Source: Escherichia coli (lineage in GTDB: Bacteria > Pseudomonadota > Gammaproteobacteria > Enterobacterales > Enterobacteriaceae). From it: DNA of 64,000 nucleotides. Position 1 is the stretch's first letter; each line of letters starts with the position of its first letter. The stretch lies in NCBI RefSeq assembly GCF_041886205.1, contig NZ_CP169029.1; one strand, given 5' to 3'. The translations under genes and the position numbers were made by a program. Under the pieces are notes generated by a model, which was not told the origin of the DNA, searched no databases, and worked only from the letters and a program-made list of their open reading frames with translations. Positions 31,512-45,081 of this stretch are shown one piece after another.

Positions 31512-31570
31512 GCACTATCGGAAGTTCACCAGCCAACCGCAGCACGTTTTTGCATACAACGTGCCTGCGG
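31512..31570. repeat. Repeat copy R1 (about 60 bp, hairpin plus T-run; acts as dinI-like terminator)
   Basis: gcactatcggaagttcaccagccaaccgcagcacgtttttgcatacaacgtgcctgcgg followed by ttttt; about 90% identical to 34181-34240. Confidence 0.7.
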
Positions 31571-31731: not shown

Positions 31732-32788
31732 GGCTTTGTTGAATAAATCAGATTTCGGGTAAGTCTCCCCCGTAGCGGGTTGTGTTTTCAGGCAATACGC
31801 ACGCTTTCAGGCATACCTGCTTTCGTCATTTTGTTCAGCGCTCGTACCAGGGCCATAGCCTCTGCAACCTGACCATCGTAGTCACGCAGCGTCAGTGAAC
31901 CCCCGAACAGCTGTTTTACCCGGTACATCGCCGTTTCCGCTATCGAGCGACGGTTGTAATCTGTTGTCCATTTCCACCGCGCATTACTCCCGGTCATTCG
32001 CTGATTAGCCACTGCACGGTTACGGTCTGCATATTCACCGGGCCAGTAACCCGCACCTTTTCGGGGAGGGATAAGCGCGCTGATTTTCTTACGCCGCAGT
32101 TCATCGTGACATAGCCGGGTATCGTAAGCGCCATCGGCGGCGGCTGACCTGATTTTCCGGTGGGTTTGCCGGATTAACCCGGGGAAGGCCTCTGAGTCCG
32201 TAACGTTGTTCAGCGACAGGTCAGCGCAGATGATTTCATGTGTTTTACTGTCAACGGCGAGATGCAGCTTACGCCAGATACGGCGGCGTTCCTGGCCATG
32301 CTTTTTGACTTTCCACTCGCCTTCACCGAAGACCTTCAGCCCGGTGGAATCAATTACCAGGTGTGCGATTTCACCCCGGGTGGGCGTTTTGAAACTGACA
32401 TTAACCGACTTTGCCCGCCTGCTGACACAGCTGTAATCCGGGCAGCGTAGCGGAACGTTCATCAGAGAAAAAATGGAATCAATAAAGCCCTGCGCAGCGC
32501 GCAGGGTCAGCCTGAATACGCGTTTAATGACCAGCACAGTCGTGATGGCAAGGTCAGAATAGCGCTGAGGTCTGCCTCGTGAAGAAGGTGTTGCTGACTC
32601 ATACCAGGCCTGAATAGCTTCATCATCCAGCCAGAAAGTTATGGAGCCACGGTTGATGAGGGCTTTATTGTAGGTGGGCCAGTTGGTGATTTTGAACTTT
32701 TGCTTTGCCACGGAACGGTCTGCGTTGTCGGGAAGATACGTGATCTGATCCTTCAACTCAGCAAAAGTTCGATTTATTCAACAAAGCC
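31732..32788. mobile_element. IS903-group insertion sequence (IS5 family), 1057 bp, apparently intact
   Basis: 18-bp terminal inverted repeats ggctttgttgaataaatc (31732-31749) and gatttattcaacaaagcc (32771-32788); flanked by 9-bp direct target duplication gtgctttgg (31723-31731 and 32789-32797). Confidence 0.9.
31788..32756 (-). CDS. IS903-group DDE transposase
   Basis: 322-aa ORF filling the IS; motif DSTGLKVFGEGEWKVKKHG typical of IS903/IS102 transposases; true start may be internal. Confidence 0.85.
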   Translation of the reverse strand: MKDQITYLPDNADRSVAKQKFKITNWPTYNKALINRGSITFWLDDEAIQAWYESATPSSRGRPQRYSDLAITTVLVIKRVFRLTLRAAQGFIDSIFSLMNVPLRCPDYSCVSRRAKSVNVSFKTPTRGEIAHLVIDSTGLKVFGEGEWKVKKHGQERRRIWRKLHLAVDSKTHEIICADLSLNNVTDSEAFPGLIRQTHRKIRSAAADGAYDTRLCHDELRRKKISALIPPRKGAGYWPGEYADRNRAVANQRMTGSNARWKWTTDYNRRSIAETAMYRVKQLFGGSLTLRDYDGQVAEAMALVRALNKMTKAGMPESVRIA

Positions 32789-32843: not shown

Positions 32844-33848
32844 ATGCAAGATACAGACGTTTACGTATACATAGGCGATGTTCACCGCTCTGGTCATCAC
32901 GACATCACCAAAGCGATTAAAGAAAGAAAAACTAACCATGGTTTACAAAAAAATGTTCTTTTTTGCGTCGCTACCTATGGCGGTGATCCCAGCGCAGGAT
33001 ATAGAATTGGCCGCGCTTTGCAACACAACTATGAACACATCACCGTTCTAGTTGTTGGCCCTTGCAAAAGTGCTGGAACCTTGATGGCTGTCGCCGCTCA
33101 TAAGCTCGTGATTGGTGATATGGGTGAGCTTGGTCCTCTAGACATCCAACTTAAGAAAAATGATGAGATCGGCGAATTGAGCTCGGGCCTTGTTATCGCA
33201 ACGGCGATTGATGAAATAAAAGAGTGCGCTATTTCGACCTTTAGATCATACGTACTTGATATAAAGTACAGAAACCAAATTAGCACGAAGATGTCTGCAG
33301 ATATTGCTGCTAAGCTTACTGAAGCAATCATATCGCCGATGGCCTCACAGATAGACCCCATCAAACTCGGGGAGCATCAACGAGCAATGAACATAGCGCT
33401 TTCCTATGGGGAGCGTTTGAATAGTCACTCGAAAAATCTTAAGGAAAGCTCCTTAGGCAAGTTGATCGCTGGATATCCAGCCCATGGTTTTGTGATAGAC
33501 CGTAAAGAGGCGAGGGAACTATTCAACCATGTTGAGAGTCCTACAGACTTTGCAGCCAACCTGTACGAAGTTCTTGGTGAGATGATTTCGTCAGGCGAAA
33601 TCTCTATCTTCGACAAACCGGTGATTAAAGATTTAACTCCTAAAAAACAATATGAAACAACTAACGCAGAGGAAGATTCCCATGACAACAGCAGAATTCA
33701 GGAAGGAGATGAAATCTCTGACCAAAATTCAGGAAGAGCAGAACCGCCAAGGGATGAACCTGTCCAGGGAAGCGATGGAAAACATGCGGAAATTGAAGAA
33801 GAGGCTGGAACCTTACCAGCAGAGCAACCAGATGAAGGCACTCAGTGA
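32844..33848 (+). CDS. Orphan ClpP/crotonase-fold serine peptidase-like protein (S49/SDH-like) with acidic low-complexity C-terminal tail
   Basis: 334-aa AT-rich ORF with SD (aggga) 8 bp upstream; core ...VATYGGDPSAGYRIGRAL...VVGPCKSAGTLMAVAAHKLVIGDMGELGPLD resembles Clp-fold peptidases; last ~70 aa rich in E/D/Q; family assignment from memory only. Confidence 0.55.
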   Translation: MQDTDVYVYIGDVHRSGHHDITKAIKERKTNHGLQKNVLFCVATYGGDPSAGYRIGRALQHNYEHITVLVVGPCKSAGTLMAVAAHKLVIGDMGELGPLDIQLKKNDEIGELSSGLVIATAIDEIKECAISTFRSYVLDIKYRNQISTKMSADIAAKLTEAIISPMASQIDPIKLGEHQRAMNIALSYGERLNSHSKNLKESSLGKLIAGYPAHGFVIDRKEARELFNHVESPTDFAANLYEVLGEMISSGEISIFDKPVIKDLTPKKQYETTNAEEDSHDNSRIQEGDEISDQNSGRAEPPRDEPVQGSDGKHAEIEEEAGTLPAEQPDEGTQ

Positions 33849-34180: not shown

Positions 34181-34240
34181 GCACTATCGAAAGTTCGCCA
34201 GCCAGCCGCAGCACGTTCTTGCATACGACGTGGCTGCGGC
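34181..34240. repeat. Repeat copy R2 (about 60 bp) next to the invertase 3' end
   Basis: gcactatcgaaagttcgccagccagccgcagcacgttcttgcatacgacgtggctgcgg; 54/60 identical to R1; contains 13-bp stem agccgcagcacgt / acgtg(g)ctgcggct. Confidence 0.7.
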
Positions 34241-34280
34241 TTCCAACATTAGACAAATAACTCTTTAAATTGCTTTTAAA

Positions 34281-34844
34281 TTATTTCGTTTGAATGCCAG
34301 TAACAGGAAATCGTTTATATAGGGTTGATAGCCCAACGTTATAGATACGTGCAACATAACGCCGTGATTTCCCTGCCGCTATGAGCGCTCCCATCTGTTG
34401 CCACTGCTCGTCGCTAAACTTCGGTCTACGCCCACCAATCCGGCCTTTGGATCTGGCAATAGCCAAACCAGCTAAAGTTCGCTCGCTATTCAAATCAGAT
34501 TCATACTGCGCAGCAGAAAGAATATTACGGAAATTATAGCGACCACTTGCTGTTTTCAGGTCTACACCATCTGTAATACTCCGAAAATTAACGCCTTTTT
34601 CGTGCAGATTTTGAAACATCAATAGCGCATGTAGCACATTTCTCCCTATCCGATCTAGCTTCCAGACAATCAACTCATCTCCACTTTTCATCACCGAAAT
34701 TAATTCCTTTAACACAGGGCGATTAGCTGTTCTGCCACTGGCATATTCTTCATAAATTCGCTCACAGCCAGCTGACTCAAGTGCAAGACGTTGCAACTCT
34801 GTATCCTGATGATTTGTTGATACACGAACATACCCGTAAATCAT
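34281..34844 (-). CDS. Serine DNA invertase (Pin/Gin/Hin/Cin family)
   Basis: N-terminus MIYGYVRVSTNHQDTELQ with catalytic Ser, resolvase domain, C-terminal HTH (GLSTLYKRF); adjacent to invertible tail-fibre segment. Confidence 0.9.
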   Translation of the reverse strand: MIYGYVRVSTNHQDTELQRLALESAGCERIYEEYASGRTANRPVLKELISVMKSGDELIVWKLDRIGRNVLHALLMFQNLHEKGVNFRSITDGVDLKTASGRYNFRNILSAAQYESDLNSERTLAGLAIARSKGRIGGRRPKFSDEQWQQMGALIAAGKSRRYVARIYNVGLSTLYKRFPVTGIQTK

Positions 34845-34903
34845 GAGTGCTTCTCCTGTTGTAAAAACAGGAGAAGAGGCGAAATATCACCTGATTCAGA
34901 AAA

Positions 34904-34929
34904 ATATTTGAAAGGTTGGTTTGGGAGAA
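34904..34929. promoter_or_regulatory. Left crossover site of the invertible tail-fibre segment
   Basis: Contains ttggtttgggagaag (34916-34930), inverted copy of cttctcccaaaccaa at 36813-36827; half-site resembles gix half TTATCCAAAACC. Confidence 0.65.
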
Positions 34930-35415
34930 GGCTCAGCGTTACCCGTTGGTGTGCCTGTTCCGTGGCCTTCAGCCACACCACCAACAGGCTGGCTGAAATG
35001 CAACGGTGCACCTTTTTCTGCCGAAGAGTACCCAAAACTGGCAAAGGCTTACCCAAAGTTAAAATTACCGGATTTGCGCGGTGAGTTTATTCGCGGGTGG
35101 GATGATGGGCGAGGTGTTGATTCCGCGAGACTGCTGCTTTCAAGTCAGGCAGCATCTATCCTTGAACATAACCATGAAATGCATGGATGGACAGGGAACC
35201 CACTCATGGCTAGAGATGTTGGTGAATTAGGTACATCATCCGTATTTGCGGTGCAGTTGAGCATTGGCGATGGCGGGTTATTGTATTCGTGGAAGGATGG
35301 GAGTGGAACAACAAATGACAGTAAACGAATGGATAGAACAAATCATGTCAGTTCCGGCGCCGGTGATGGTAGCCCGCGAAACATTGCATTTAACTACATT
35401 GTGAGGGCTGCATAA
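34921..35415 (+). CDS. Alternative (currently unexpressed) tail-fibre C-terminal variable domain
   Basis: Frame opens exactly at the left crossover site with no ATG (ORF-track M is TTG); encodes tail-collar-like receptor-binding domain. Confidence 0.7.
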   Translation: MGEGSALPVGVPVPWPSATPPTGWLKCNGAPFSAEEYPKLAKAYPKLKLPDLRGEFIRGWDDGRGVDSARLLLSSQAASILEHNHEMHGWTGNPLMARDVGELGTSSVFAVQLSIGDGGLLYSWKDGSGTTNDSKRMDRTNHVSSGAGDGSPRNIAFNYIVRAA

Positions 35416-36018
35416 ATGGAACAGGCTATTTTGGGAAAAGACGGTTACGCTTTAAATGATGGGGAAATCATCGTACATAACTATGATGGCGAAACGCGGG
35501 AATATATTTCTACATCAACTGAATATCTCGCTGTCGGAGTCGGTATCCCGGCATGTTCCTGTCTGGATGCACCAGGTACACATAAAGCTGGTTATGCAAT
35601 CTGTCGCTCTGTAGATTTAAATTCATGGGAATATGTGCCAGACCATCGCGGTGAAACGGTCTATAGCACCAAAACAGGAGAATCAAAAGAAATCACCGCT
35701 CCGGGTGATTACCCTGAAAATACAACCACTATCGCCCCATTAACGCCATACGATAAATGGGATGGTGAGAAATGGGTGACCGATACTGAGGCACAGCATA
35801 GCGCCGCAGTAGACGCGGCAGAAGCACAGCGCCAGTCACTGATTGATGCTGCAATGGCTTCCATTAGTCTGATTCAACTGAAATTGCAGGCCGGACGTAA
35901 ACTGACGCAGGCAGAAACAACCAGACTTAACGCTGTGCTGGATTACATTGACGCGGTGACGGCAACAGATACCAGCACCGCGCCGGATGTCATCTGGCCT
36001 GAACTGCCGGAGGCGTAG
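35416..36018 (+). CDS. Tail-fibre assembly chaperone (Tfa) for the alternative fibre
   Basis: 200 aa with conserved Tfa C-terminus LNAVLDYIDAVTATDTSTAPDVIWPELP. Confidence 0.75.
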   Translation: MEQAILGKDGYALNDGEIIVHNYDGETREYISTSTEYLAVGVGIPACSCLDAPGTHKAGYAICRSVDLNSWEYVPDHRGETVYSTKTGESKEITAPGDYPENTTTIAPLTPYDKWDGEKWVTDTEAQHSAAVDAAEAQRQSLIDAAMASISLIQLKLQAGRKLTQAETTRLNAVLDYIDAVTATDTSTAPDVIWPELPEA

Positions 36019-36442
36019 GCCATTCAATATCTGGCGCACTGGAGGTATCAACCAGCTCCAGTGCATCCAGATAATCCAGCCACAAATTATATTGCGCCAG
36101 TTCCTCACCTTTCAGACGACCAATAGCGGCTTTACCGGGCCATTGCTTACTGTTCATGTATTCGTTGGCCTGGTTAATTAGTAGCTGTCTTTCTGATTCA
36201 GTAATTTCAATAAGCTCTTCATGCGTGGGTGGAGGAATATCTGCCCACGCAGGCAGCCCATCATCTCCGGCAATACGGATTTTTCCTTGTGGCGGTTCAG
36301 CCATAAACTCACTGATAATATTTTGATTTACTTCCTTAGCGTCTGATAAATCCCATCCCTCTGATTTATATTTATCAATCATATCCACAGGGAAAAAAGC
36401 ATTATGCCTTGCGCTATAAACATATTCGTTCATATAAATCAC
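35990..36442 (-). CDS. Tail-fibre assembly chaperone (Tfa) for the currently expressed fibre
   Basis: 150 aa, C-terminus LWLDYLDALELVDTSSAPDIEWPTPP; converges on the other tfa. Confidence 0.75.
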   Translation of the reverse strand: MIYMNEYVYSARHNAFFPVDMIDKYKSEGWDLSDAKEVNQNIISEFMAEPPQGKIRIAGDDGLPAWADIPPPTHEELIEITESERQLLINQANEYMNSKQWPGKAAIGRLKGEELAQYNLWLDYLDALELVDTSSAPDIEWPTPPAVQAR

Positions 36443-36453
36443 CCTGAATAAAA

Positions 36454-37116
36454 TTACTCACCAACAGCCCACCAACTGTAATTCATCGATACCGTGTCGC
36501 TGGTTGATGACGTTCTGTAAGCAGAATTAAAGCCGGTTAACGTTGGGCCTTCTGCAGTCATCACGAACCCTCGCCCAGCGCCTAAAGGCGCACCGCCATC
36601 ACCAGAATGAGTAAGCATGGCGCAGTCCGCTTTTTTGGGGAAAGGGATGCTGAATGTAATTCTCATTGTTTGCGTCGATAATGTCGGCGTAACCGCACCA
36701 CGACCATATTGCAGGATTTTCCCGTTGGGTAATTTCATCCATCCATCACCACTGGCAAAAGAGGCCATGTCCGGTATCTGATTTTCCCCTGTCCCCACAT
36801 CCCGTTTTGCCGCTTCTCCCAAACCAAGGTTTTCGAGAGCCGTTTTCACCGTGCCATCCGATTTGATATCGCCAAACGGATTCTTGCGGCTTAACAGCAG
36901 CGCACGAAGCGCGGTAAGCAGCTGGTCATGCCGCCCCTTCTCCAGGCTGGCACCGGATGCCTCCACCACGCTGCAAAGTTCCTCCTGCAACATGTCAAAG
37001 TAGTCATCATCCAGATCGGTGGCAGGCGTGCCGGTCTGGGGGTTACCACGGGTAAAACCGTTCTTACCCGCGCCGAACTTATCCTTCTGCGCGGTTTTCG
37101 TGTCTATACGATGCAT
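36454..37116 (-). CDS. Tail-fibre protein (constant N-terminus fused to the currently selected variable C-terminus)
   Basis: Conserved N-terminus [47 protein letters not shown]; crossover site falls at ...[10 protein letters not shown]. Confidence 0.8.
36814..36839. promoter_or_regulatory. Right crossover site of the invertible segment (inside the tail-fibre gene)
   Basis: ttctcccaaacc-aa-ggttttcgagag, near-perfect dyad; inverted relative to left site. Confidence 0.65.
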
Positions 37117-37119
37117 GAA

Positions 37120-37704
37120 TTACTCCGGATATTTAAAAATTACGTAGGTATGCGACGGGCAGAGTTTGTTAAGCACACACTCGACAACGGTGTCGCCCCA
37201 GATACGCAGTGCGGAATCACAGGGATCGCCACATGTCATCCAGGTGGTGTTGGTGGCGGCTGGCATGTTGACCTGCCAGTAATACCGCCATTCCGGCGCA
37301 TTCACAGCGTCAGTGCAGGCTGATGAGCAGGTGAACGTGCTTTTGTCGTATCGCGTGATGGTAGCGTCTGGTCTGCCCAGGGCAGCAAGCTGTGCAAGAT
37401 AAAAATCCTCGTTGATGCCGCCCGCCAGGTTAACCTTCGCATCCAGCCGTTGCTGACGCTGGCGAAGGGTCTGTGTCCCTGCGGGAATACATTCATCCGG
37501 CAGACCGCACAGACGCTCCCAGCGGTTTATCAGTTCAGTGGTGGTGCGCGGATCCAGCTCCCGCATCAGGGCATCCGCACGCTGATGAACGCGGGTTAAT
37601 GACGGTGCCGCACCGGCAATCGCCGGATCGCTGGCTGACCACGCCGGACCGGGGGGCAACAGTGCCGACAACAGACGGATGTAATCATCGTTTGTCACGT
37701 CCAT
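37120..37704 (-). CDS. Mu gp48-like tail/baseplate protein (DUF2313, YmfQ-like)
   Basis: 194 aa; position between baseplate J and tail fibre as in Mu and e14. Confidence 0.6.
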
Positions 37705-40792: not shown

Positions 40793-42162
40793 TGCACTGG
40801 CACCTTCAGAGGGATCACCGGCACAAAGCCGGGATGCGTAATGGCATTACGCCGGATAATGTCCGCGTCACGCGCCGCGTTATCAAACCAGGTCGCTGCC
40901 AGCACCAGCGCGGGTAAAACCTCATCCGGTGTGCGCTGAATGATCCGTGCAGACTGTTCAAGGCGCGTGTTGATATCCGCATTCAGATCTGCTTTCACCC
41001 GGCGCAGCGCCAGAAACAGCGCATCACTGGTTGTACGGGACAACTCCTTATCAATTGCCGTATTCAGTGTGTCGCGAATGTCAGTCAGTTCTTCCCACGT
41101 CGGCAGGTCAACCGTGTTTTTCACCGCCGGTGCATTGTTCAGTGCCGGATGCGTGACGGAAGGCCAGCCAGTGCTCTGCGCGGGTGTTGTTGCCTGCCCC
41201 ACTGCGGAATTCTGCATCACCGCGGAAGTTGTTGGCGCAGGCAATCGGGTGACGGCATACGCCGCTTCGCTGATTGCGGTCGTACGAAGGGTGCTGGCAA
41301 CCACGTTACGCTGCTGCGTAGCCGTGGCGGTGGTTTTACTGTCCGTTTTCCAGACGCCGCGCGGTTGCAGATCGCTGCCGAGGCTGACACCGGAAAGCGT
41401 TTTGATCATGGTGACCAGGTCGCTGGCGTTACCATAAAGGCGTTTCCCGGTACGCCACATTTTCTGCACCTGCTCAACGAAATTTTTGCCTGACGATGGC
41501 GGCGGCAGAAGTACCGAGATATCCCCCTGTAACAGCCTGGCGGCATCCGATACGGCAGAATCCACCACTTTCATCGCATCAGAAACATACCCCAGCATTA
41601 TGCTGGCATTACCGATAACGTCGTTCTGCACGAAATCCGCCACACCATCGATACTGAAACCGCTGAAGCTGTCACTGATGCAGTCATCCAGTGCAGAACA
41701 GGATGACATCAGCGTCTGCGCCGTCGCCGCACCTGATGTGGGGTAAGAGAGCTCTCCTGCTTCGACAAACTTCAGGTCAAAGCGGACAATACGTCCTTCA
41801 CTTTTCGATGTGCTGACCCGAACTTCCCCGTCAACACAGACTTTCAGCTCACCGTATGTCGGATGGACAAGCGTGCCGGGACCGGGTTTATTCAGCGCGT
41901 CAATCAGGCGATCGCGCTGGTCAAAACAGTCATCTCCCACCACATAAGCCGTGATGGACGGGCGGAAAGTGATTTTCCCCAGGTCTTCGGTATAGGGTTT
42001 GTCGCGGTTCGGGTATTCATGTGTTTCTACACGGCGACCGGTTCCCGCACTTTCTTCTTCAACCTTAAACGGCACACCTCGAAATGATGCTTCAAGTAGC
42101 TTTTCACGCCAGCCACTTCGAGAATCAGAGGATAGGTACGAAGAAATATGAGAAAAATCCAT
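40789..42162 (-). CDS. Mu N-like DNA circulation / tail protein
   Basis: 457 aa; position between tape measure and baseplate hub. Confidence 0.5.
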   Translation of the reverse strand: MDFSHISSYLSSDSRSGWREKLLEASFRGVPFKVEEESAGTGRRVETHEYPNRDKPYTEDLGKITFRPSITAYVVGDDCFDQRDRLIDALNKPGPGTLVHPTYGELKVCVDGEVRVSTSKSEGRIVRFDLKFVEAGELSYPTSGAATAQTLMSSCSALDDCISDSFSGFSIDGVADFVQNDVIGNASIMLGYVSDAMKVVDSAVSDAARLLQGDISVLLPPPSSGKNFVEQVQKMWRTGKRLYGNASDLVTMIKTLSGVSLGSDLQPRGVWKTDSKTTATATQQRNVVASTLRTTAISEAAYAVTRLPAPTTSAVMQNSAVGQATTPAQSTGWPSVTHPALNNAPAVKNTVDLPTWEELTDIRDTLNTAIDKELSRTTSDALFLALRRVKADLNADINTRLEQSARIIQRTPDEVLPALVLAATWFDNAARDADIIRRNAITHPGFVPVIPLKVPVQ

Positions 42163-42218
42163 GGCGTCACCTCAAATAAAAACCGCGTGTAAACGCGGTT
42201 TTTTATTAGGTAATAAAA

Positions 42219-42707
42219 TTAACGATCATAATCAACATTATGAGTATCTATTCTACATGATGAATAAGTAATTCCGCTTTCACCACTAATATTTACGCCA
42301 GCCTTTACCTTCCCTGTTTTCGTAACATCAACAAAGAATTGCCCTCTTGGCATTTTAAATGCAAAAGAGAAACCAATAATTTCCGAGTCAAAGTTATTTT
42401 CATCCTCACTAATTGGTACAATAAAAGTCAATGGTGCAGATTGTGAGTTATTTTCAAAATCAAAAGCACCAATGCTTTTATTAAACTCGTAGGATGCTTT
42501 TTTTATTAAAAGAGTTCCACTTGCCGACTTTGCTGGGCATATTACATACAGTCTATTTATTCCCTCTACATCTAGATCTATATTCTTATCCGCTGAAGTT
42601 TTAACGTTATCTATAAAGTATGTAGCAAGCTGCTTTTCCGTTACTGGCTTCGCAAAGGAGTTTAATGGCAGTCCTACAGCCAACAACAATATAAACATTT
42701 TCTTCAT
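42219..42707 (-). CDS. Secreted small protein (moron) inside the tail operon
   Basis: AT-rich ORF with signal peptide MKKMFILLLAVGLPLNSFA; own terminator hairpin downstream (42170-42200); start taken at Met-12 of ORF-track frame. Confidence 0.6.
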   Translation of the reverse strand: MKKMFILLLAVGLPLNSFAKPVTEKQLATYFIDNVKTSADKNIDLDVEGINRLYVICPAKSASGTLLIKKASYEFNKSIGAFDFENNSQSAPLTFIVPISEDENNFDSEIIGFSFAFKMPRGQFFVDVTKTGKVKAGVNISGESGITYSSCRIDTHNVDYDR

Positions 42708-42771
42708 ATTCTCTCCTACATTCAGCACAAACTTTACCACTCAATAACCCTACTTGATTAAAGTAGTTATA

Positions 42772-44673
42772 TTATCGTCTGAATGGAGAATACCCCACAT
42801 CGTGCGTGATTTTCATCAGGGGATCGGCTTTGCCCGGTACATCAATTATCTTCATACCTGGCGGAGCATTCTCGAACGTGACTTTCAGCTCGCTGTGCTG
42901 TGTCATGGAAGAAGATGGATTCAACAGCGGAACATTGGGTTTGTACTGACTCAGGCTGGCCTGATACTGCTCGTACTCTTTACGATCAAAAAAAGGCGTC
43001 CAGTCTGAAGCCAGAAACAGCCCTTTATTATCCAGCCAGTTAACCGTATCTTCAGGAACAACACTTTCCAGAGTATCTTTAACCGGCTCATACATCAGGG
43101 TTCCCAGAAAACCATATACCCCGGCCTTCCCGATAAAGCCGCGCCCTTTCCCCATCAATCCCGTTTCTGCCGATACCTTCCCCAGCGTACGCATCTCTCT
43201 GGTCACTGCGGTAATGGATTTGGTAACGTCAGCAACCCATTTGGTTGCCATAAACAGGGCAATCGCTTTCAGAACAGTTTCCCATCCCCCCATCGCCTGC
43301 GCCGTTTCATCCACCACGTGCCAGACTTTTTTTATGACAGGACCTACGGTTTCCCAATTATCAATAATGAGGTAAGCGCCACCAACCAGAAGAGCAATCA
43401 GCCCCTTAGCAGGCGTCATATTCATCACACCGCCGAGAACTTTCATGATTCTGGACAAAGAGCCTGCAGCGGCCCCCACTGTCAGTAAAGCCAGACCGAT
43501 TTTAGCAATGGTCTTAACGAGCTCCGGGTTTTCACGGACAAACGTTCTCACTTCCTCAAGGAGCGGTTTTACCGCTTCAAGACCATCATTAACCTCAGGA
43601 AGAAACGTTTCCCCCAGAGTGGAAGAAATGGCATCAAGTTGATTTTGCAGAAGTAAAAGCTGGTTTTCCGTCGTCGCTGCCCTCGAAGCATATTCCTTCT
43701 GCATCGAACTGCCATACTGCTGGGAATCCGCAACCCGCCTGAAGTTGGTACGCAACAAATCAAGGTTAGTCAGCAGAGGTGCTATCGCGCCCAGAGACTC
43801 TTTCCCGAACAGGGCATTCAGCACAGCTGCCTGTTTTTCTTTAGGCACTTTAGACATCGCATCCAGTACAGACAGCATGGTTCCCCGGGCATCTTTCTGC
43901 ATATCAGCAGCTAATTTCTTCGGATTGATCCGCAGAAAACGTAATGCCTGTTTCTGCGATTTTGTCGCGGAATTTCCCGCGGTCAGGGAAAGCATGAAGT
44001 TCTTGATCCCTGTGGCGGCAATTTCTGACTCCACGCCCATCCCGGCAATGGTTGCCCCCATTGCCGCGATTTCGCCGGAAGCCACACCTGCAACACCACC
44101 TAAAGGACCAATACGCGTAACAATATCGGAGATTTTCTTCGCATTCGCCGGACCGGTATTACCAAGGTAGTTGATTTTGTCAGCCAGCCCGGCCACTTCA
44201 TCCTGCGTCATATTAAACGCAGTACGCCACTGGGCCATCATCTGCCCGGACTCTTCAGCCGTGGTATCAAAGGCCACGCCCATCTTCACCGCATCAGTGG
44301 CAAACTGCATCAGTTCATCACGTGCAATCCCGGCCTGACCGCCAGCCGCCACAATTTCCGCGATCCCGTCTGCAGACATGGGAAGCTCAGTAGACAAAGC
44401 GCGTACCTGCTCCGTCATGGCCTTAAACGCATCCGGCGTATCCAGACCGTCCACCACTTTGCGGACATCAGCCATCTTCGATTCAAGGGTGATGGCTGAT
44501 TTTACAGGGAGTGCCAGTGCCCCCATTATTGCAGTACCCGCCCCGGCAGCGCCCAGAGCAAGGCTGGAGACTTCTTTCTGAAACCCCTTAAGCTGACGCT
44601 GCATACCTTTAAGCGGGCCGGATAGCCTGTCAACGGCGGTGATGATGGCTTTCAGCTGAAAATTATCAGCCAT
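42772..44673 (-). CDS. Tail tape-measure protein
   Basis: 633 aa, Ala/Gly-rich alpha-helical; after tube and chaperone genes. Confidence 0.75.
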   Translation of the reverse strand: MADNFQLKAIITAVDRLSGPLKGMQRQLKGFQKEVSSLALGAAGAGTAIMGALALPVKSAITLESKMADVRKVVDGLDTPDAFKAMTEQVRALSTELPMSADGIAEIVAAGGQAGIARDELMQFATDAVKMGVAFDTTAEESGQMMAQWRTAFNMTQDEVAGLADKINYLGNTGPANAKKISDIVTRIGPLGGVAGVASGEIAAMGATIAGMGVESEIAATGIKNFMLSLTAGNSATKSQKQALRFLRINPKKLAADMQKDARGTMLSVLDAMSKVPKEKQAAVLNALFGKESLGAIAPLLTNLDLLRTNFRRVADSQQYGSSMQKEYASRAATTENQLLLLQNQLDAISSTLGETFLPEVNDGLEAVKPLLEEVRTFVRENPELVKTIAKIGLALLTVGAAAGSLSRIMKVLGGVMNMTPAKGLIALLVGGAYLIIDNWETVGPVIKKVWHVVDETAQAMGGWETVLKAIALFMATKWVADVTKSITAVTREMRTLGKVSAETGLMGKGRGFIGKAGVYGFLGTLMYEPVKDTLESVVPEDTVNWLDNKGLFLASDWTPFFDRKEYEQYQASLSQYKPNVPLLNPSSSMTQHSELKVTFENAPPGMKIIDVPGKADPLMKITHDVGYSPFRR

Positions 44674-44757
44674 GCTTCATCTCCTCATTTATACGGACGG
44701 CCTCTGCCTCCAGATCAGCAAAGTGGGAAATAGCCGTCCGGCGAAGTTCAAGGGGGT

Positions 44758-45081
44758 TTAATTTCCAGAACCACGCGACATTGTAGAATCGCTTCCGGAG
44801 GTCTCTTCCGTCTCCAAGCCGGTAAAAAAACGCATTACAATCATGCCTGCCTTGAAAATATCCAGCTTCGTCATCTGCGCTGCAGACGAGCGCGGGATCC
44901 CGGCCAGAAGCGGGATATATTTCAGCGCTACCTGACTGTCCATTTTCATACCACCATCAGGCGAAACAGAGAAAGGGAACCCCAGCGCCTCAATCTCGTC
45001 ATACGTAGGCTCACGTATTTCCAGCACATGCAGTGTTTCTTTGTGGGCGATGATCGGTTTTTTAAGTACAAGCTCAATCAC
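44758..45081 (-). CDS. Tail assembly chaperone
   Basis: 107-aa ORF between tube and tape measure. Confidence 0.5.
   Translation of the reverse strand: MIELVLKKPIIAHKETLHVLEIREPTYDEIEALGFPFSVSPDGGMKMDSQVALKYIPLLAGIPRSSAAQMTKLDIFKAGMIVMRFFTGLETEETSGSDSTMSRGSGN

Follow-up and report, generated by a model that had tools for sequence, protein, structure and literature searches.

An e14-type invertible tail fibre segment with two crossover sites in an apparently intact SKA5-like prophage of Escherichia coli

In the G segment of phage Mu and the C segment of P1, inverted by Gin and Cin, respectively, a constant fibre part (Sc) is joined to either Sv/U or Sv'/U', a 26-bp crossover site lies in the fibre gene, and the invertase is encoded just outside the segment. 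The locus described here shares this logic. Its segment is shorter, i.e., 1.9 kb compared with 3.0 kb in Mu and 4.2 kb in P1, its invertase is 49–53% identical to Mu Gin and P1 Cin, and its crossover core, AA/TT, agrees with cix and pix but not with Mu gix, which has GA/TC. Salmonella Hin, acting on hix, flips a promoter and not a coding cassette. It resembles the enzyme of our locus as a small serine recombinase with a C-terminal helix-turn-helix domain, and its catalytic residues are retained there. In p15B Min and the R64 shufflon, site-specific inversion likewise links alternative C-termini to a single constant N-terminus, but with many sites and segments, and the shufflon combines sfx sites with the tyrosine recombinase Rci.

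The closest relative of our locus is the P segment of the e14 element in E. coli K-12 (pinE, stfP/ycfK, tfaP, tfaE, stfE). Both show the same order, i.e., the Mu gp48-like gene (ymfQ in e14), Sc, two cassettes with tfa genes and the invertase. The e14 segment flips in ordinary cultures (PMC4272514). Its published repeat, TTGGTTTGGGAGAAGG, is identical to the repeat found here and is inverted experimentally by PinE and also by PinQ, an enzyme from another prophage with 38% identity to PinE (PMC12529663). A role in the lysogen has been described for this segment, where recombination activates a block of other phages' adsorption (Kirigo et al. 2025). e14 is a remnant at icd, whereas the element analyzed here is a full-length SKA5-like prophage at dusA.

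Our window, i.e., the complete stretch of 64 kb that was analyzed (E. coli, contig NZ_CP169029.1), contains an inverted-orientation pair of 26-bp Din-type sites. They bracket about 1.91 kb with two cassettes for the fibre C-terminus, each with a dedicated chaperone gene behind it. An earlier note, made from the letters of this DNA alone, had placed an invertible segment of about 1.9 kb here and had taken an inverted 15-mer as the mark of the crossover points. The 15-mer CTTCTCCCAAACCAA occurs exactly twice in the window, at 36813–36827 (+) and 34916–34930 (−), and lengthens to 20 nt at 90% complementarity in a repeat search. A chance origin of the pair is ruled out, as none of 100 dinucleotide-preserving shuffles contained two matches. 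Exchange does occur within this repeat, but the crossover point proper is a 2-bp core at one end of the 15-mer.

Read as Din-type, the invertase-proximal site is TTCTCCCAAACC-AA-CCTTTCAAATAT (reverse complement of 34904–34929, core 34916–34917), with TTCTCCCAAACC as its inner and CCTTTCAAATAT as its outer half. The fibre-proximal site is TTCTCCCAAACC-AA-GGTTTTCGAGAG (36814–36839, core 36826–36827) and lies within fibre codons 93–101. The interval 34904–36839 proposed earlier therefore marks the outer edges of the two 26-bp sites. Both sites have 12-bp imperfect inverted half-sites around the 2-bp core, and their cores are identical, TT/AA. The outer half CCTTTCAAATAT is degenerate and matches the GGTTT.. 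consensus poorly; e14 also has a degenerate outer half-site on its invertase-proximal side. The note had recommended a comparison with gix, pix and cix. All 26 bp of the fibre-proximal site are identical to the e14 site in K-12 ycfK/stfP, and the invertase-proximal site shares inner half and core with e14 pix but differs in its outer half, CCTTTCAAATAT here versus CGTTTATGAAAA in e14. Moreover, fibre residues 1–101 are 99% identical to K-12 e14 StfP. Given the common repeat and this nearly identical Sc, we therefore classify the locus as an e14-type P segment. It differs from K-12 e14 in its variable C-termini and in its invertase, which is only 54% identical to PinE.

Allowing up to two mismatches, we found only these two sites in the 64-kb window and hence no further Min- or shufflon-like ones. 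A match to GGATAGGGAGAA inside the invertase gene was rejected as an extra site, having neither a partner nor core context. The term shufflon-like, applied to the locus before, is thus better replaced, since a two-site switch with a Din-type serine invertase differs from a multi-site tyrosine-recombinase shufflon.

The fibre gene is the last gene of the tail operon. Its Sc part (residues 1–97; 36826–37116, minus strand) adjoins, on the downstream side, homologues of Mu gp48, gp47, gp46 and gp45, in likeness to the Mu tail module. The variable C-terminus expressed in the present orientation, Sv (36454–36825, minus strand), is of gp53-like_C type (PF21882, E = 3.1e-12). The silent alternative, Sv' (34918–35415, plus strand), is of Collar type (PF07484, detected in the in silico flipped product). 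Directly after Sv' and in the same orientation follows the gene of its cognate 200-aa fibre assembly chaperone (35416–36018, plus strand; PF02413 Caudo_TAP, E = 5e-33). The chaperone cognate to the expressed cassette (35990–36442, minus strand; PF02413, E = 2e-31) is encoded after the fibre on the same strand and comprises 150 aa from a GTG or 147 aa from the ATG at 36433. The two chaperone genes converge with a tail-to-tail overlap of 29 bp. Domain searches hence agree with the pair of alternative C-termini and the two convergent chaperone genes recognized in the note.

When the segment is flipped in silico, fibre residues 1–97 fuse in frame to the silent cassette and the product changes from 220 aa to 262 aa. 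The crossover core falls in codon Leu97, at the ENL end of ...ENLGLGE, and GLGE is contributed by the shared inner half-site, such that expressed and flipped sequences part from residue 102. The frame switch had been assigned to this very motif. The silent frame is shut by an in-frame TGA at 34909–34911 within the outer half-site. The earlier statement that it lacks its own start codon is right as regards ATG and GTG, but a TTG Leu codon at 34921, inside the repeat, is a possible start, and the only one.

Both orientations occur in nature. The 220-aa fibre of the present orientation is found as an exact protein on 39 public contigs and the 262-aa flipped fibre on 21, all from E. coli. In two pairs of near-identical prophages (L004 and L014, L007 and L012) the flanks are 99.98% identical and the 1908-bp segment is 100% identical but inverted, and the alignments change strand within the repeat. 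A further locus, L030, is inverted relative to L005, L006 and L009, and all four carry the same 187-aa invertase at dusA. Ten other loci with this invertase also give in-frame flips, and the predicted flipped fusions of seven of them are exact database proteins. This confirms that the segment is real and has flipped in nature. The note had named a single orientation combined with a dead invertase as the observation that would speak against a switch; we find Ser9 of the invertase retained and both orientations in public assemblies. From the ensemble of these findings, the locus is very probably a two-site, Din-type serine-invertase switch of the e14 P segment kind at the tail-operon end of an apparently intact SKA5-like prophage. 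The long-known switches of e14, Mu and P1 are close relatives, and only the flipping enzyme of the locus is unusual.

The invertase gene (34281–34844, minus strand) starts 59 bp outside the segment and encodes 187 aa with Resolvase (PF00239) and HTH_7 (PF02796) domains. Its product aligns without gaps to Gin (3UJ3) over residues 1–181 (E = 8.5e-57), in agreement with the Pin/Gin-type enzyme noted before. It is 49–54% identical to Pin, Gin and Cin and 99.5% identical to an annotated 'DNA invertase' of phage SKA5. It retains Y5, R7, S9, R42, D64, R65, R68, E121 and R122, and the equivalent of γδ D36 is Glu33. From its sequence the protein classifies as a small serine recombinase of the DNA-invertase subclass, and its recombination chemistry is expected to be that of Gin and Hin. 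It belongs to a divergent Din-like clade of at least 115 sequence clusters at ≥77% identity, from E. coli, Salmonella, Citrobacter, Klebsiella, Enterobacter and Serratia. No specific NCBIfam model covers the invertase, the fibres or the chaperones, and we identified no literature describing the clade.

Invertases can act in trans, as PinQ does on e14, so that the inversions seen in nature are no proof of action by the 187-aa enzyme. A co-resident PinE- or PinQ-like enzyme could invert the segment, with the 187-aa enzyme inactive on these sites or otherwise employed. Such a division would fit the segment interior, which is 99–100% identical to segments found alongside 184-aa Pin-type invertases, and also the finding of an identical 187-aa invertase beside two loci without recognizable sites (L019, L020). 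We nevertheless regard it as improbable. The same type of proximal site is fixed at 59 bp from the invertase ATG in 61 of 70 clade loci, and Y5, R7, S9, D64, R65 and R68 are near-invariant across 115 clade members. Moreover, dusA prophages with the 187-aa invertase are present in both orientations, and the flip products predicted for loci with this enzyme mostly exist, as described above. We infer that in the source strain catalysis is due to the adjacent 187-aa invertase.

The segment as a whole was swapped in from a Pin-type prophage, and the two breakpoints coincide exactly with the crossover sites. Sv' shows about 91% DNA identity to the C-terminal part of HK97 stf, beginning exactly at 34916. 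One relative, L029, carries a truncated Pin-type invertase gene. We considered an origin of the window outside E. coli, since every complete E. coli genome covers less than 80% of the region, but rejected it because all three proteins match E. coli database entries exactly; the low coverage stems from the mosaic make-up of invertase and segment.

The surrounding prophage, with lambdoid early genes, an HK97-like head and a Mu-like contractile tail, is collinear with phage SKA5 at 95–98% identity. This collinearity spans all prophage parts inside the window, i.e., head, tail, lysis, replication and immunity genes. The element, integrated at dusA, is apparently intact. Two insertions, a cargo cassette and an IS903-type element, lie nearby, past the 3' end of the invertase gene; the inverted repeats and 9-bp target duplication of the IS show that it is IS903-type and not IS5. 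The region around the invertase is a spot of variable cargo, which in relatives includes genes of defence type, and PADLOC assigned no defence family to the neighbouring 334-aa protease or to the invertase.

Such a neighbourhood, together with the case of the e14 segment, whose repeats are the same and whose Sc is 99% identical, raises the question whether the switch is selected mainly in the lysogen, where the fibre-derived protein of one orientation would block adsorption of other phages in a recombinase-activated defence. We judge this as improbable as inversion by a foreign enzyme. In e14, production of StfE2 depends on an invertase-side start codon beyond the segment, but here the TGA at 34909–34911 closes the frame, and the window therefore has no e14-style, externally started stfE/StfE2 product. 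Moreover, the prophage, unlike e14, is collinear with an isolated phage throughout its parts in the window, and a host-range role in the virion is therefore available to it.

A strong hairpin covers the ribosome-binding site of the invertase. A palindrome with an 11-bp stem and a 5-nt loop (34850–34876, minus strand) spans the Shine-Dalgarno sequence AGGAG. The 91-nt leader has a folding energy of −26.5 kcal/mol (z = −4.55), equalled by 0 of 200 shuffles, and among 13 distinct clade leaders the stem hardly varies and includes one compensatory pair. The palindrome may possibly serve as a translational brake or as a protein-binding pseudo-site. Scans of 34200–37300 gave no promoter or terminator above shuffle expectation, and yielded no sigma-70-like promoter for the invertase. 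Din invertases are normally expressed at low levels. That the locus is structurally intact but frozen in the source strain, with no meaningful flip rate because the invertase is, e.g., barely expressed, would suit the hairpin, the absent promoter match and the nearby insertions, but is the least probable reading of all, as the invertase ORF, both sites and both cassettes are intact with both fusions in frame, the hairpin is clade-wide and hence not a lesion, and the insertions are located past the invertase gene, on its 3' side.

For a segment inverted by its adjacent enzyme, we propose the following course. On the minus strand, the fibre gene starts at 37116, and its codons 1–97 (Sc) lie outside the segment. 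An invertase dimer would bind each site, and the two sites would synapse. All four strands would then be broken at the AA/TT cores (34916–34917 and 36826–36827), staggered by 2 bp, one half of the tetramer would rotate by 180°, and the strands would be religated. In the present orientation Sc is followed by the gp53-like C-terminus and the 147/150-aa chaperone; after inversion, it continues in frame into the Collar-type C-terminus, followed by the 200-aa chaperone. Virions of the two orientations would hence carry different receptor-binding tips and could therefore adsorb to different hosts, a form of bet-hedging. A consequence for host range would be expected on the model of Mu G, P1 C and carotovoricin, and from the two differing C-termini of receptor-binding type.

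The invertase departs from Hin at positions of Fis and enhancer control. We used the numbering offset Hin = Gin + 1, which is backed for the DNA-binding domain by the 1HCR alignment. The Fis-contact residues Hin Q151, R154 and L155 correspond to Q150, A153 and L154, and these columns vary in 115 clade members (Q/E, then R/A/E/K/Q, then L/R/M). In Hin, R154 and L155 are required for inversion, and basic helix-B residues contact enhancer DNA (PMC3798978). The helix-B positions (Hin K47, K/R48, K/R51) are K46, E47 and S50 here, with mostly A, T, G or S at position 50 in the clade. The helix-E 'lock' that keeps the dimer inactive (Hin F105 and M109, also H107) is replaced by N104, I108 and R106, which are invariant in the clade, whereas the equivalents of F106 and of the pocket residue F88 are kept. 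Compared with Hin, the changes are hence R154 to A, R48 to E, K51 to S, F105 to N and H107 to R, and they fall among the Fis contacts, the basic helix-B positions and the helix-E lock. The exchange F105N makes Hin inversion Fis-independent in vivo (PMC4513852).

P1 annotates a recombinational enhancer, of the kind that has its Fis sites within the 5' end of the invertase gene, at cin +19..+90. Over nt 19–90, synonymous diversity in 18 non-redundant clade sequences was not reduced, with 0.44 compared with 0.50 elsewhere (rank 68 of 156 windows, at weak power); for Pin, Gin and Cin, only three sequences, it was reduced, with 0.45 compared with 0.59 (rank 9 of 156). The block GTATCAACAAAT is kept in the gene of the 187-aa invertase. 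As several Hin Fis/enhancer residues are missing, regulation may differ. The fixed Asn, the variable or non-basic contacts, the apparent lack of synonymous constraint and the palindrome over the ribosome-binding site may all point to an altered Fis/enhancer dependence. We tentatively consider, as a possibility that falls short of an even chance, that the clade works free of a Fis/enhancer invertasome or depends on it differently, that its unlocked enzyme is kept low by the palindrome, and that it swaps cassettes in trans at its sites. If so, the palindrome could keep an intrinsically 'unlocked' enzyme very scarce, and its action in trans on a junction site common to the fibre genes of unrelated phages (HK97 stf, P2-like H, e14) could explain the exact-site cassette swaps.

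As a switch, the locus adds little to the textbook biology of Mu G, P1 C and e14 P, and public records already annotate its parts. The invertase clade, lacking the Fis/enhancer hallmarks, would allow a natural comparison of how serine invertases enforce directionality and safety, and might supply enhancer-independent recombinases for engineering. The exchange of a segment between two prophage families, with breakpoints at the 26-bp sites, is clean natural evidence for these sites as cassette-exchange junctions. Finally, an e14-type P segment is found here in a seemingly complete, inducible phage. The meaning of the e14 switch for host range is therefore directly testable, as it never was in defective e14.

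The final part of a Mu-like tail operon, with homologues of Mu gp44, gp45, gp46, gp47 and gp48/YmfQ, lies on the minus strand between 34.2 and 40.8 kb. The gp48/YmfQ homologue is followed by a 220-residue fibre ORF (36454–37116, minus strand) and, on the same strand, by a PF02413 chaperone gene of 147/150 residues (35990–36442). A second PF02413 chaperone gene (200 residues, 35416–36018) and a phage Collar domain ORF, which extends up to 35415, are encoded on the strand opposite to the fibre, and a gene for a 187-residue Resolvase and HTH_7 protein occupies 34281–34844 (minus strand). Two alternative fibre C-termini and two convergent chaperone genes, as an earlier note had described them, are present, with one chaperone gene co-oriented behind each C-terminus. 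At their 3′ ends the chaperone genes share 29 bp (35990–36018), as they do in the annotation of relatives and of K-12 e14.

The inverted 15-mer previously taken to mark the crossover points occurs in exactly two copies in the 64 kb, whereas two copies were found in 0 of 100 shuffles. A repeat search extended it to 20 nt, and reading against known Din sites gave two 26-bp sites, i.e., TTCTCCCAAACC AA GGTTTTCGAGAG at 36814–36839 and, as reverse complement, TTCTCCCAAACC AA CCTTTCAAATAT at 34904–34929; the segment boundaries proposed before, 34904 and 36839, are the outer edges of these sites. We inverted the DNA between the cores 34916–17 and 36826–27 in silico. Fibre codons 1–97 remained unmoved and the Collar cassette was joined in frame, converting the 220-residue into a 262-residue fibre. 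The frame switch had been placed at ENLGLGE, and this agrees with our reconstruction, where codons 1–97 are kept and GLGE (residues 98–101) comes from the shared inner half-site. The alternative C-terminus was said to have no start codon of its own; the silent frame indeed lacks an ATG or GTG start and is closed by a TGA in the outer half-site, three codons upstream of the repeat.

Across public assemblies, the segment has flipped in nature. Exact matches in E. coli assemblies were obtained for the present fibre on 39 contigs and for the predicted flipped fibre on 21, and both states were found among the loci on contigs fetched for these fibres. Two near-isogenic pairs of loci (L004 vs L014, L007 vs L012) have flanks that are 99.98% identical and 1908-bp segments that are 100% identical but inverted, with the alignments switching strand within the repeat; the invertase of these four loci is of the 184-residue Pin type. 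Among dusA prophages with the 187-residue enzyme, locus L030 has the opposite orientation to L005, L006 and L009. For ten further loci with identical invertase, the in-silico flip was in frame in all ten, and the predicted fusion proteins of seven had exact database entries. The earlier note had considered that a single orientation together with a dead invertase would speak against a switch; this is not what we found, because both states occur in public E. coli assemblies.

All 26 bp of the fibre-proximal site match the ycfK/stfP site of K-12 e14, the invertase-proximal site shares inner half and core with e14, and K-12 StfP is 99% identical to the window fibre over residues 1–101. The published repeat of the e14 P segment is also the window repeat (PMC12529663). 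The P segment was inverted experimentally by PinE and also by the distant PinQ, and a third of E. coli genomes carry it in inverted form (PMC12529663); e14 flipping occurs in ordinary cultures (PMC4272514). The host element is not e14 itself, as the sequence from 29909 to the window end is collinear with the isolated phage SKA5 at 95–98% identity. The prophage adjoins dusA and an integrase. Because of the e14 site and StfP identity on the one hand and the SKA5 collinearity on the other, the system is an e14-type P segment inside an apparently complete phage. A DNA invertase at 99.5% identity is already named in the SKA5 record, along with two fibre parts and two assembly genes. Observation and interpretation of the earlier note were both correct, and the system joins a well-known, textbook kind, i.e., Mu G/Gin, P1 C/Cin and e14 P/Pin. 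The stretch 42093–45053, around the tape-measure gene and its neighbours, is the sole long part of the tail region lacking SKA5 similarity, which suggests another mosaic replacement.

Compared with locus L006, the flank with the constant fibre part is 99.9% and the invertase plus spacer 100% identical. The segment interior is 99.1–100% identical to L012 and L007 and 45–94% to L006, with each changeover placed precisely at a 26-bp site. The whole invertible segment differs in ancestry from its flanks. In HK97, a phage without invertase, stf has a complete pix-like 26-bp site, CTCGCACAAACC TT GGTTTGGGAGAA, at the NLGLGE junction (about 1489–1514 of its locus), and its similarity to the window sets in precisely at 34916, the crossover core. 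In the P2-like phage pro483 this junction recurs (sites at about 1494–1519 and 3397–3422 of its locus), and the phage also has an invertase of its own. Because HK97 stf and the pro483 fibre genes share this junction, the sites fall on a module boundary that is general to fibre genes, and they may serve exchange besides inversion.

Between dinI and the invertase lies a cargo cassette with a gene for a 334-residue SDH-family Clp-fold serine protease (32844–33848, plus strand), bounded by a 59-bp direct repeat (31512–31570 and 34181–34239, 90% identical) that carries a GC-rich palindrome. The cassette is missing from SKA5 and several relatives; others have DUF4145, GIY-YIG, GmrSD, AbiTii or HNH/McrA genes at this spot, and one locus carries the same cassette beside a truncated Pin-type invertase. 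A PADLOC run on the cassette gave no match. An IS903-type element (31732–32788; transposase ORF 31788–32756, minus strand), recognised by its terminal repeats GGCTTTGTTGAATAAATC and the 9-bp duplication of its target, GTGCTTTGG, is inserted just upstream of the protease gene; E. coli loci that match otherwise are without it. The identical 187-residue invertase also occurs beside two loci whose sites are degenerate or absent and which have only one fibre and chaperone, and once beside a different baseplate module.

In 61 of 70 loci of the invertase clade, exactly 59 bp separate the ATG from the proximal site, with inner half TTCTCCCAAACC, core AA and an outer half starting CCTTT. A perfect palindrome (34850–34876, 11-bp stem) spans the AGGAG ribosome-binding site, and the leader folds far more stably than shuffles (z −4.55). 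The stem is near-invariant in 13 distinct clade leaders, with one compensatory pair. The outer ends of the arms, TTCTCC, resemble recombination half-sites. The palindrome may act as an RNA hairpin, or else as a DNA element or pseudo-site for autoregulation.

What sets this system apart is its invertase. Pin, Gin and Cin share 75–82% mutual identity, whereas the window enzyme is 49–54% identical to each and aligns with Gin gaplessly over residues 1–181. Its clade comprises 115 clusters at ≥77% identity from many Enterobacteriaceae. The catalytic set, the F88-pocket residue and the equivalent of F106 show practically no variation, and helix E has fixed N104, R106, I108, L109 and Y114 in place of F, H, M, G and M. 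According to Chang et al. (PMC4513852), the F105N mutant of Hin does not need Fis for inversion in vivo. McLean et al. (PMC3798978) report that R154 and L155 of Hin touch Fis and are needed for inversion, and that helix-B residues 47, 48 and 51 keep their basic character across the DNA invertases in their alignment. At the clade positions that correspond to Hin Q151, R154, L155 and to K47, R48, K51, the residues vary or are not basic; the window enzyme has Q, A, L at the first three and K, E, S at the other three. The P1 record annotates the enhancer at cin +19..+90. Along the genes of the Pin/Gin/Cin trio, synonymous divergence was lowest in this part (rank 9 of 156 windows); along those of the 187-residue clade it was not (rank 68 of 156). 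The test is weak. Taken as a whole, the sequence data do not support placing the window enzyme in the Fis/enhancer-dependent subgroup, and the clade is possibly independent of Fis; in its predicted action the enzyme is still Din-type, on Din sites. Of the leads from this analysis, only the divergent invertase clade would merit experimental work.
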